Assembly (NCBI GenBank): GCA_031409335.1 | Contig: JANNWY010000038.1 | Coordinates: 1 to 14,683, forward strand | Source: Chthoniobacteraceae bacterium | GTDB taxonomy: Bacteria; Verrucomicrobiota; Verrucomicrobiia; Chthoniobacterales; Chthoniobacteraceae | Length of the DNA: 14,683 nt | Direction of reading: 5' to 3' | Part shown: one piece after another, positions 11,160 through 13,434 of the stretch | Layout of the letters: every line of letters begins with the position of its first letter | Numbering within the stretch: position 1 is the first letter of the stretch | The notes under the pieces: model-generated | What the model saw: only the letters and a program-made list of their open reading frames with translations | Databases searched by the model: none | What the model was told of the DNA's origin: nothing | Translations under genes and position numbers: made by a program

Positions 11160-12203
11160 GGCCTAGTTCTCTATTCACATTTTTAGGATAAAGGTGCCGT
11201 TTACCATGTGATGTGCCAGGGTGACCCCCGAGAGGCGATCTTTGCCGATGACGCGGATCGGGAGATGTTTCGACCATGCTCGCGCAAATGTGCGGTCGCA
11301 CCGGGATGCGGGTGCATGGCTACGTGCTGCCATAGGCCCTGAGCCTGCCGAATGGGATGAGCAACGATTGCCATCTGCTGCTGGAAACACCGGAGCCGAA
11401 TCTGGTGGCTGGGATGAAGTGGTTCCAGGGCACTTACACGCAGCGCTTCATTGCGCGCCACCGGCTCAGTGGGCATCTCTTCCAAGGGCGCCACAAGGCG
11501 ATCCCGGTGCAGGCCGAGGCCAATGGCTACTTTTGCGCCGCGAGCGAATACATTCACCGCGACCCGGTGCGCGTGCGGCTGCTGGAGGCGGGCAGGCCCG
11601 ATTTGCGCGAATACCGCTGGCGCAGCTTTCTGCATTTTGTGCAAAAAACACGACTGCCAGAATGGCTTCGGCGGGATCGGGCCTTTGGCGCACTGGAGCT
11701 TCCGGATGAAGGTGCCGGATCGCGCCGACGGTACCGCGGGTGGCTGGTGGCGCGGACGCGCGATGTGCTGGACCAGGAGGCGACGGAGAAACAGTCCGGG
11801 CAATGGCGCGAGCTGCGGCTTGGCTGGTGCCTGGGGAGCGAAAGTTTTGGCGACCAGCTCATGGACTGGCCGGCGTAGGCGGTCGCGGCGCGCAAGCGTA
11901 CGTCCTACTCGGGCGAGAGCCTGAGGGCGCACGACCAAAGGGAGGCCGAGAGGCTGCTGGTGCTCGGTCTGGAGGGGCTGGGGCTGACACGGGCGCAGGC
12001 CGTCGCGCTGAAGAAAGCGGACCCGCGCAAGCAGGCGCTGGCCTTGCTGATGAAGAGCCACACGGTGGTGGCCGACGGGTGGAACGTTGCGCGCTTGGAG
12101 ATGCGCCATCGCAGCAATAAGAGGCGGGAGATCACGGCATTTTTCGATCCGAAGTAAGGCCAACACCGGAAGCTTCAAAGAGTTCTGCACATATGCACGG
12201 ACT
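11160..12203 (+). pseudogene. Degraded REP-associated tyrosine transposase (RAYT, Y1_Tnp/IS200-like)
   Basis: Reconstructed as GAVYHVMCQGDPREAIFADDADREMF / TMLAQMCGRTGMRVHGYVL / MSNDCHLLLETPEPNLVAGMKWFQGTYTQRF...GHLFQGRHKA...YIHRDPVR...YRWRS. Lesions: frameshift near 11271, a 27-bp insert, stops at 11184, 11333, 11876 and 12155, and HUH reading D-C-H. The 5' start is approximate. Confidence 0.88.
11330..11356. repeat. 27-bp small repeat-like insertion in the RAYT
   Basis: CCATAGGCCCTGAGCCTGCCGAATGGG sits exactly between the codons for YVL and MSN, which are contiguous in RAYT proteins. Confidence 0.7.
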
Positions 12204-12205
12204 TG

Positions 12206-12211
12206 TATCTT
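12206..12211 (+). promoter_or_regulatory. -10 half (TATCTT) of the circle-junction promoter
   Basis: After circularisation at CT it lies 17 nt from TTGCGC (13347-13352). Confidence 0.7.
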
Positions 12212-12217
12212 GGGTTT

Positions 12218-12420
12218 AGCCGGTCGGAAGGCCCGTCCTGAAAGTCGGCTTTTGCTGGGCGGCGGCGCAGTCGTCCCGCAAGAATAAGTCGCCGGGGGAG
12301 AAGATCGTTCTGGACTGGAACCTTTGAGTTCGTGGGTCAGCTCGATCCTCCCCCGGCGCGTGTTCGTATCTTGAACAGTTGCTGGAACCTCTGAGTTCGC
12401 ATCGCAAGTAGAAGAATGAA
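12218..12420 (+). ncRNA. Bridge RNA of the IS110 element
   Basis: Two 5' hairpins (12218-12250, 12253-12280). Target loop closed by an 11-bp stem (12290-12300/12348-12358) with guides TTCTGGACT (12308-12316) and GGGTCAG (12334-12340). Donor loop (12363-12420) with ACAGTTGCT (12375-12383) and GCAAG (12404-12408). Ends are inferred. Confidence 0.85.
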
Positions 12421-12439
12421 TCCACACCACACCCCATCC

Positions 12440-13357
12440 ATGCATACCTACCTCGGCCTCGACATCTCCAAACTCCACCTCGACACTTCTCATCTCGGCC
12501 ACCCAGGCCAGCTCGCCAACACCGATAAAGCCATCACCTCGTGGCTCAAAGCCCTGCCGACTGGCATCATTCTGGCCTGCGAGGCCAGCGGTGGCTACGA
12601 GGCGCGCCTGCTCGCCCTGGCCCACGCCCACGCGCAGCCCATCATCCTGCTCAATGCCCGCCAGGTGCGCGACTTTGCCAAAGCCAAAAACCGCTTTGCC
12701 AAGACCGATCCGATCGACGCCGCGCTCATCGCCGAGTTTGCCGAAACCTTCCAACCGGCACCGCTCGCTCCGCCCGATCCCGCCACCGACCATTTGCGCG
12801 CCTTGGTCCAGCACCGCACCCATCTTTTGGCTCAGATCACGCAGAATACCAATTTCGCCCTCACCGTCACCGATGCGAAGTTGCGCCGCTTGCTCGCCAG
12901 GACCGTCGCCTTCCTGCGCAAACAAGTCGCCGAACTGGAAGCACTCATGAAAGCCCAGCAGGCCCACTCTCCCGCGCTCCACCAGCGGATCGCGCGCCTT
13001 GAGCAAATCCAAGGCGTCGGCTCCCTCACCGCCACCGCCCTGGTCGCGCTCATGCCCGAACTCGGTTCGCTTTCGGACACTGAAGCCGCCGCCCTCGCGG
13101 GCGTCGCTCCCTTCAATTGCGACAGCGGCCAATACCGCGGTCGCCGCCACATCCGCGGCGGCCGTTCCCAAGTCCGCTCCGCTCTCTACATGGCCGCACT
13201 CGTCGCCTCTCGCTATAACCCTGTTCTCAAGCCGCTTTACCTCCGCCTGCTAGCCGCCGGAAAGGCCAAAAAACTCGCCCTCACCGTCCTCATGCGCAAA
13301 CTCATCCTGCTCGCTAATCATCTGCTCAAAAATCCTGCTTTCGCTCTTGCGCGCTAA
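12440..13357 (+). CDS. IS110 family DEDD recombinase/transposase
   Basis: LGLDISK, CEASG and KTDPIDA (DEDD), [15 protein letters not shown] (catalytic Ser candidate), [14 protein letters not shown] and MRKL. ATG 12440 is preferred over 12416. Confidence 0.95.
13347..13352 (+). promoter_or_regulatory. -35 half (TTGCGC) of the circle-junction promoter
   Basis: Lies 15 nt from the element end including CT; the 2 nt TG from the left end complete a 17-nt spacer. Confidence 0.65.
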
Positions 13358-13434
13358 GACAGTTGCTGACCCTTTCGACACTGCTGTCGAGAAACTTTCG
13401 ATGTCCGCTTCTTCTTTTCGAGCGCAGATGACGG

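Follow-up and report, generated by a model that had tools for sequence, protein, structure and literature searches.

IS621 is an IS110-group insertion sequence whose long left end carries a 5' hairpin, a target-binding loop and a donor-binding loop, and which uses a CT core (PMC11208160, PMC11208158). Its donor is paired by an 8-nt left guide (A123–C130) and by a right guide that reads AT, a bulge and GCAAG and includes a G.T pair; handshake bases, a DEDD motif with a serine and promoter boxes split over both ends complete the system, whose target is the REP of E. coli. ISCro4 (IS622) has the same architecture, with 14-base donor and target frames and handshake guides, and its activity in human cells has been shown in a study whose screen obtained any signal from 18 of 72 orthologues (10.1101/2025.05.14.653916). 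In ISPpu10 the left target guide tolerates mismatches away from the core but is strict close to it, and the right guide is rigid; the target is a REP with a conserved stem-loop (10.64898/2026.03.19.712850). IS4321 and IS5075 are members of the IS1111 group, in which the right end and the subterminal repeats are both long, and are reported to land in the end repeats of a different mobile element, namely the terminal inverted repeats of the Tn21 family. TIRYT elements are Y1 transposase genes bordered by inverted repeats of consensus GGGGWSAS, which also occur as free repeats, dimers and clusters; the accessible portions of the TIRYT and TIRtron accounts make no mention of IS110 insertions in these repeats (PMC3733652, PMC6006769).

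The element described here lies in a stretch of 14,683 nt from a Chthoniobacteraceae bacterium, the window, whose source genome is called G000; loci of relatives carry L numbers. It shares with IS621 the traits listed above except the target, its bridge RNA being predicted and its promoter boxes putative, and 12 of the 14 donor bases are identical. The IS621 donor given in an initial annotation of the window is correct. It differs from IS621 in its protein (about 30% identity; 305 aa against 326 aa), in a right target guide that pairs over 7 nt where natural IS621 pairs over 4, in a right donor guide with a bulge of 1 nt instead of 2, in a right end of about 10 nt with the putative -35 box inside the gene, and in a target that belongs to the TIRYT repeats and not to the REPs. 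It shares the architecture, the two 14-base frames and the handshake guides with ISCro4, whose protein is distant and active in human cells. It resembles ISPpu10 in the apparent behaviour of its target guides, in a lineage without a conserved target hairpin, and IS4321 and IS5075 in its choice of landing site.

The insertion sequence and its recombinase

The element has a left end of 236 nt, an open reading frame (12440–13357) and a right end of about 10 nt (Table 1). All the motifs pointed out by the initial annotation are present where it had placed them: GCACGGACT at 12195–12203, CTTGTAT at 12202–12208, TTCTGGACT at 12308–12316, GGGTCAG at 12334–12340, ACAGTTGCT at both 12375–12383 and 13359–13367, GCAAG at 12404–12408 and CTGACCC at 13366–13372. 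A 3-bp subterminal repeat, in which CTT (12209–12211) pairs with AAG (13356–13358), borders the donor, and together with the long left end and the short right end it places the element in the IS110 and not the IS1111 group. The CT core is shared between 12202 and 13366, and excision of the element in silico restores a 14-mer, as is characteristic of the scarless insertion of IS110 elements without target duplication. The resulting sequence, GCACGGACTGACCC, has five further occurrences in G000 against 0.03 expected, and belongs to a family of 22 copies in this genome at up to 4 mismatches over 23 nt, the exact 14-mer being found in five.

Table 1. Features of the element and its surroundings in the window
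Feature	Position	Strand	Basis or detail
TIRYT-type Y1 transposase gene, broken; the insertion is in its right repeat	11190..12157	+	frameshift near 11290, in-frame stops
TIRYT terminal repeat, inner part	12186..12203	+	12195-12201 left target arm, 12202-12203 core; 22 uninterrupted copies in G000
IS110-group insertion sequence	12202..13367	+	CT core to CT core, one core being that of the target; ends kept in relatives
Right donor arm TGTAT (12204-12208) and putative -10 box TATCTT (12206-12211)	12204..12211	+	sequence; kept in relatives; promoter role by analogy with IS621
Predicted bridge RNA	12218..12420	+	start and end estimated; fold, paired stems in relatives
5' stem-loop of predicted bridge RNA	12252..12281	+	predicted fold; hairpins of other sequence at this place in relatives (by eye)
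Target-binding loop	12290..12358	+	stem; left guide 12308-12316, inner hairpin 12318-12331, right guide 12334-12340, handshake 12341-12342
Donor-binding loop	12370..12414	+	left guide 12375-12382, inner hairpin 12385-12398, right guide 12401-12408, handshake 12409-12410
IS110 recombinase, 305 aa, DEDD and catalytic serine	12440..13357	+	PF01548, PF02371, NF033542, IS621 match
Putative -35 box TTGCGC	13347..13352	+	within the last recombinase codons; 17 nt from TATCTT after end joining
Left donor arm ACAGTTG and CT core	13359..13367	+	sequence; conserved right ends in relatives
Right target arm GACCC, outer conserved end of TIRYT repeat	13368..13372	+	26/31 right flanks; Y1 homologue loci

Searches with blastn and tblastn find a single copy of the element in G000, an assembly of 326 contigs in which further copies may be hidden. 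For comparison, 121 loci were gathered and 36 were kept, the window included, at 55% identity or more in the best segment; the right end is readable in 31 of them, left flank and left guide are both readable in 22, and the remainder are cut by contig ends or off-pattern. The right ends read AAGACAGTTG-CT throughout, with two single-base variants, and the left ends CT-TGTAT. Two right ends (L026 and L069) have the left donor arm interrupted by some 50 extra bases with a hairpin, followed by a GACCCC flank, and L015 has a second stretch resembling the right donor arm within a few bases of its right flank, perhaps the remnant of another insertion. The contigs of four sequencing runs contain no joint that closes a circle or skips the element, rare forms being lost from contigs; two contigs of a paralogous repeat copy lose their match at 12202–12203 (X1 record 6, X2 record 14), both runs possibly stemming from the window's own source study. 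Among the sequencing runs listed as containing the sequence there is no RNA run, a result that does not bear on expression.

The recombinase matches the N-terminal domain PF01548 (E = 6.7e-21), which holds the DEDD residues, and the C-terminal domain PF02371 (E = 1.5e-17), which holds the catalytic serine, and it scores 173 bits against a cut-off of 140 in NF033542, the NCBIfam family of IS110 RNA-guided transposases. The residues that the initial annotation had recognised as kept are D8, E48, D90, D93 and S229-G230; D8, E48, D90, D93 and S229 line up with D11, E60, D102, D105 and S241 of IS621, and none of these five varies among the 61 homologues that were aligned out of the at least 120 listed, most of which have 305 aa. 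An upstream ATG at 12416 would extend the protein to 313 aa. Comparison with IS621 gives E = 7.4e-25 and, by hand count, 92 identities in about 307 columns, and comparison with ISCro4 gives E = 2.2e-22. The view that this is an intact and compact IS621-type recombinase with a different target is borne out by these family profiles, by the conserved ends and by the guide-flank covariation and compensatory stem changes described below.

The window holds a second IS110-family transposase gene, within 13948–14683 of the plus strand, with its start at 14129 and truncated where the contig stops (PF01548, E = 1.5e-18); its product is barely alignable to the first and unrelated to it. About 190 nt upstream of this gene have four other copies in G000 at 81–98% and may hold another bridge RNA. 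Between the two genes, the segment 13385–13560 is GC-rich, folds strongly and has a short palindrome at its end; it is single in G000 and occurs in many contigs of three runs, and it may be an integron attC-like site. It comes after a 115-aa frame on the minus strand (13571–13918) that belongs to no known family.

The predicted bridge RNA and its guides

The stretch 12214–12420 is predicted to fold (z = -2.14) with a hairpin on its 5' side followed by two stems, each of which encloses an inner hairpin. In 23 aligned left ends 96.6% of the cells are paired and 9 of the 29 pairs have two-sided changes; this pairing was unmatched by any shuffle, and slid structures did far worse, although the control somewhat favours the structure, which was drawn from the same 23 sequences. 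The IS621 layout with an inner hairpin in each loop, as initially proposed, is upheld by the predicted fold and by stem covariation. As in IS621-type RNAs, the two internal loops contain guides that pair with target and donor. A search of the window against Rfam returned no family. Dinucleotide shuffling of the left end (5000 rounds) recreated the right target guide of 7 nt in 2.7% of cases and the left donor guide of 8 nt in 0.12%, and never both together; the motifs had been picked post hoc. The inner hairpins of the target loop (12317–12332) and the donor loop (12384–12399) agree at 15 of 16 bases, as they would after internal duplication of one loop.

The donor guides resemble those that had been read from the window alone, with some changes of extent. 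The left one, described as matching the donor at 9 of 9 bases, does match it, but the guide comprises 8 nt, its ninth base being T in only 2 of 23 aligned relatives. The right one contains the GCAAG that had been noticed and runs further, as AT-C-GCAAG, with AT (12401–12402) pairing to donor bases 13–14 across a 1-nt bulge that is found in most relatives. The handshake bases match position 7 of the opposite substrate as after exchange, which is the arrangement of IS621. The target-loop base is C in 25 of 25 parsed loops, the donor having G7, and the donor-loop base is T in 17 of 17 loci in which target position 7 is A and G in three of the four in which it is C, although these three may represent one sub-lineage; one locus with G at position 7 has T.

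The two putative promoter boxes and their 17-nt spacing are conserved in relatives and would act as a promoter as in IS621. The Leu codon that supplies the TT of the -35 box is CTT in 30 of 31 right ends, as compared with 123 of 1047 Leu codons elsewhere, a bias that points to selection on the DNA. By analogy, a bridge RNA of about 200 nt would be expressed and the element would be active.

In the target loop the two guides behave differently. The right guide, GGGTCAG, is present in 24 of 25 parsed loops, and in the window it is the exact reverse complement of CTGACCC (7/7), as had been stated initially; of the 31 readable right flanks, 26 are GACCC and five have another sequence. Being nearly invariant in the lineage, this guide yields no covariation of its own. 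The left guide does covary with the insertion site, as IS621-type guides do: at positions 1 to 7 it matches the left flank in 11, 11, 10, 12, 20, 19 and 21 of 22 loci, and the total of 104 out of 154 compares with 72.8 +/- 4.6 after shuffling and was reached in 0 of 20,000 shuffles. Relatedness among the loci means that they do not count as independent; when each distinct guide is represented by a single locus, the result still has p <= 0.0005. The signal is strong at positions 5–7, weak at positions 3 and 4 (p 0.019 and 0.012) and absent at positions 1 and 2, which are almost always U. Covariation of guide and flank across homologues had been suggested at the outset as a check on the bridge-RNA reading, and different ends or unrelated flanks in other copies had been named as what would speak against it; the ends are the same and the left guide tracks the flank.

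The window itself is among the poorest fits for the left guide (3/7), and the match is full in 2 of the 22 loci. At its own site the guide matches 5 of 9 bases, among them the GGACT that had been seen to be shared; the other four are mismatched, with at most two wobble pairs. The pairing over 9 nt with 0–2 mismatches in the motif that is usual in IS621 does not extend to this site, such pairing being a trait of IS621 and not of all bridge RNAs, as ISPpu10 indicates (10.64898/2026.03.19.712850). With these four mismatches, and with no perfect-match site in G000, calling the system fully decodable, as had been done, was an overstatement.

The TIRYT terminal repeat as probable target

To judge from its sequence, the target of the element is the terminal inverted repeat of a TIRYT Y1 transposase element, at its GGGGTCAG end. 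The empty site reconstructed in the initial annotation is real, and its identity as a TIRYT repeat had been missed. The site of the window reads AGGGTCAG, which agrees with the TIRYT consensus at 7 of 8 positions, and GGGGTCAG is found in 20 of the 25 GACCC sites. The insertion lies about 45 nt past the broken Y1 gene, whose product has 37% identity (E = 5.7e-47, two TAG stops) to the intact Y1 protein (PF01797) of L022. In L022 the element is located within the right member of an inverted repeat pair around the Y1 gene, and in L001 just upstream of one; since these two loci and the window are the three with a neighbouring Y1 gene, the TIRYT link of the other loci rests on the motif. A search for upstream inverted repeats against shuffles found no left partner repeat for the window's site, and a partner above all shuffles in 4 of 19 loci.

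The Y1 genes themselves provide a view of the repeat from the other side. Among the best 30 Y1 homologue loci of the order, GGGTCAG occurs upstream in 27, CTGACCC downstream in 25 and both in 24, as against 10 of 377 control windows. The exact 14-mer of the window stands on both sides of the Y1 gene in L154, and the insertion sites of the window, L018, L020 and L023 are found among the repeat variants at the Y1 loci. The guide does not reach the base after GACCC, yet 20 of 25 sites, counted without one near-duplicate, have C there as compared with 15% after CTGACCC in G000, an enrichment that is expected for a repeat ending in GGGG. More distant relatives at 46–49% identity (L056, L080, L081 and L093) and at 40% (L075) have the same right guide and a GACCCC flank, the donor arm being different in the first four; L090 and L091 have the same right guide, with a flank that is other or unreadable. 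Six of the 22 repeat copies in G000 fit 10/10, yet this genome has one copy of the element. As the insertion keeps CTGACCCC intact on the outer side, the element would lie inside the TIRYT boundary and could travel along with it.

A target hairpin like that of ISPpu10 was considered and rejected: the window does have a 4-bp palindrome over its mismatched bases, but related sites do not keep it (p < 0.1 at 5 of 21 sites, with a Wilcoxon p of 0.73; 17 of 95 for Y1-locus repeats). A second repeat, starting with GAATGGCA, often abuts the TIRYT repeat directly past GACCC (C120, C145 and C46 of G000; L032, L021, L026 and L069), and is probably the end of another element using the same place.

Alternative readings and significance

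The reading preferred here, with a probability of about 0.88, is that of an autonomous IS621-type IS110 element whose landing sites are the terminal inverted repeats of TIRYT (Y1/HUH) elements; it comes from a lineage of 305-aa recombinases in which the members that have a name are Verrucomicrobiota. Its ends, the four guides, the target repeat family and the guide-flank covariation are read from the sequence, and the remainder is drawn by inference. The model, modelled on IS621, proposes that the element would leave as a circle, although circle formation in IS621 itself is disputed in the literature, cut-and-paste being set against single-strand copying. The joined ends would set TTGCGC 17 nt before TATCTT, from which the bridge RNA would be transcribed, and a recombinase tetramer would bring the donor loop onto ACAGTTG-CT-TGTAT and the target loop onto the repeat. 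The DEDD/serine site would then cut beside CT and strand exchange would follow, with the handshake bases C12341 and U12409 pairing only, or better, after exchange, so that insertion would be favoured. From the lineage, the working specificity may be put at about 10 bp, GGA-CT-GACCC: the right guide of 7 nt would be tied to the conserved end of the repeat, the inner three bases of the left guide would track the repeat variants, and its outer four, which are U-rich, would be tolerant, one guide thus serving many variants.

The mismatched outer bases could also be explained if the guide had been adapted to an entire 14-bp site of a former host. The insertion in the window would then be an infrequent off-target or half-match event that followed transfer, and the outer bases of the left guide would count as they do in IS621. 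The single copy in G000, the weak covariation of positions 3 and 4, and the loci that match at 8–9 of 9 bases (L020, L030, L018, L041, L031, L014 and L021) are in keeping with this, as are the half-match insertion and the intolerance of mismatches that are reported for IS621. However, L022 and L023, with the same left guide, are likewise mismatched in the outer four bases, full matches are as rare as given above, and tolerance of outer left-guide mismatches has been found experimentally in ISPpu10 (10.64898/2026.03.19.712850). Moreover, a perfect site occurs in 1 of 301 genomes of the class as compared with three control hits, a scarcity that makes it less likely that any of the genomes searched represents a former host whose target is matched, and the explanation appears unlikely on the whole.

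It is more doubtful still that the lineage targets any word of the type GGA-CT-GACCC and overlaps TIRYT incidentally, given that the repeats supply many such words. Seven of the 13 exact 10-mers in G000 fall outside the repeat family, and 15 of 19 loci have no significant partner repeat, as would be expected from such a habit; it leaves the C at position 15 unaccounted for, as well as left flanks that are repeat variants of intact Y1 elements and a right guide identical to the TIRYT consensus in several lineages, the most distant at 40% protein identity. That the frame only looks intact and the element is a dead relic is the least probable of these alternatives: its single copy and its position next to a broken gene would fit, but no damage is seen in the frame, the catalytic residues, the ends, the guides or the putative promoter boxes, and parts of the element are matched by contigs of two other studies with 0–1 differences over 87–241 nt (X3 record 20; X6 records 26, 27, 29 and 30).

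Returning to the element as a presumed inserter into TIRYT repeats, much of it has precedents. The donor ACAGTTGCTTGTAT occurs 424 times in supplement file 5 of PMC11208160, as compared with 200 for the IS621 donor, and file 4 has at least three target rows and at least one donor row of this lineage, one of them being the L013 site itself. The pattern of a loose left and a rigid right guide is already published for ISPpu10 (10.64898/2026.03.19.712850). The literature search, which covered few subscription papers, found no paper linking IS110 with TIRYT, TIRtron, the Y1 transposase, the motif or Verrucomicrobia. The machinery, the donor and the lineage members are already known, and the TIRYT target is the sole addition, which seems to have gone unremarked before.

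As the mechanism is known, the value of the locus is comparative. It offers a compact bridge recombinase of about 30% identity to IS621, with defined target, donor and guides, ready for an orthologue screen, and a lineage in which 16 variants of the left guide occur naturally with one fixed right guide, a series that tests how much of the guide is used. It is quite possible, if somewhat short of probable, that IS110 lineages have specialised more than once as TIRYT parasites, with the right guide locked on the repeat end, the inner left bases tracking its variants and the U-rich outer bases acting as wildcards; if so, the guide set would be a natural record of TIRYT repeat diversity, and an enzyme of 305 aa whose natural right guide has 7 nt would be a distinct starting point for tools. 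With this target, the TIRYT end repeats would join the REPs and the Tn21 repeats as mobile or repeated DNA that serves as a landing site.
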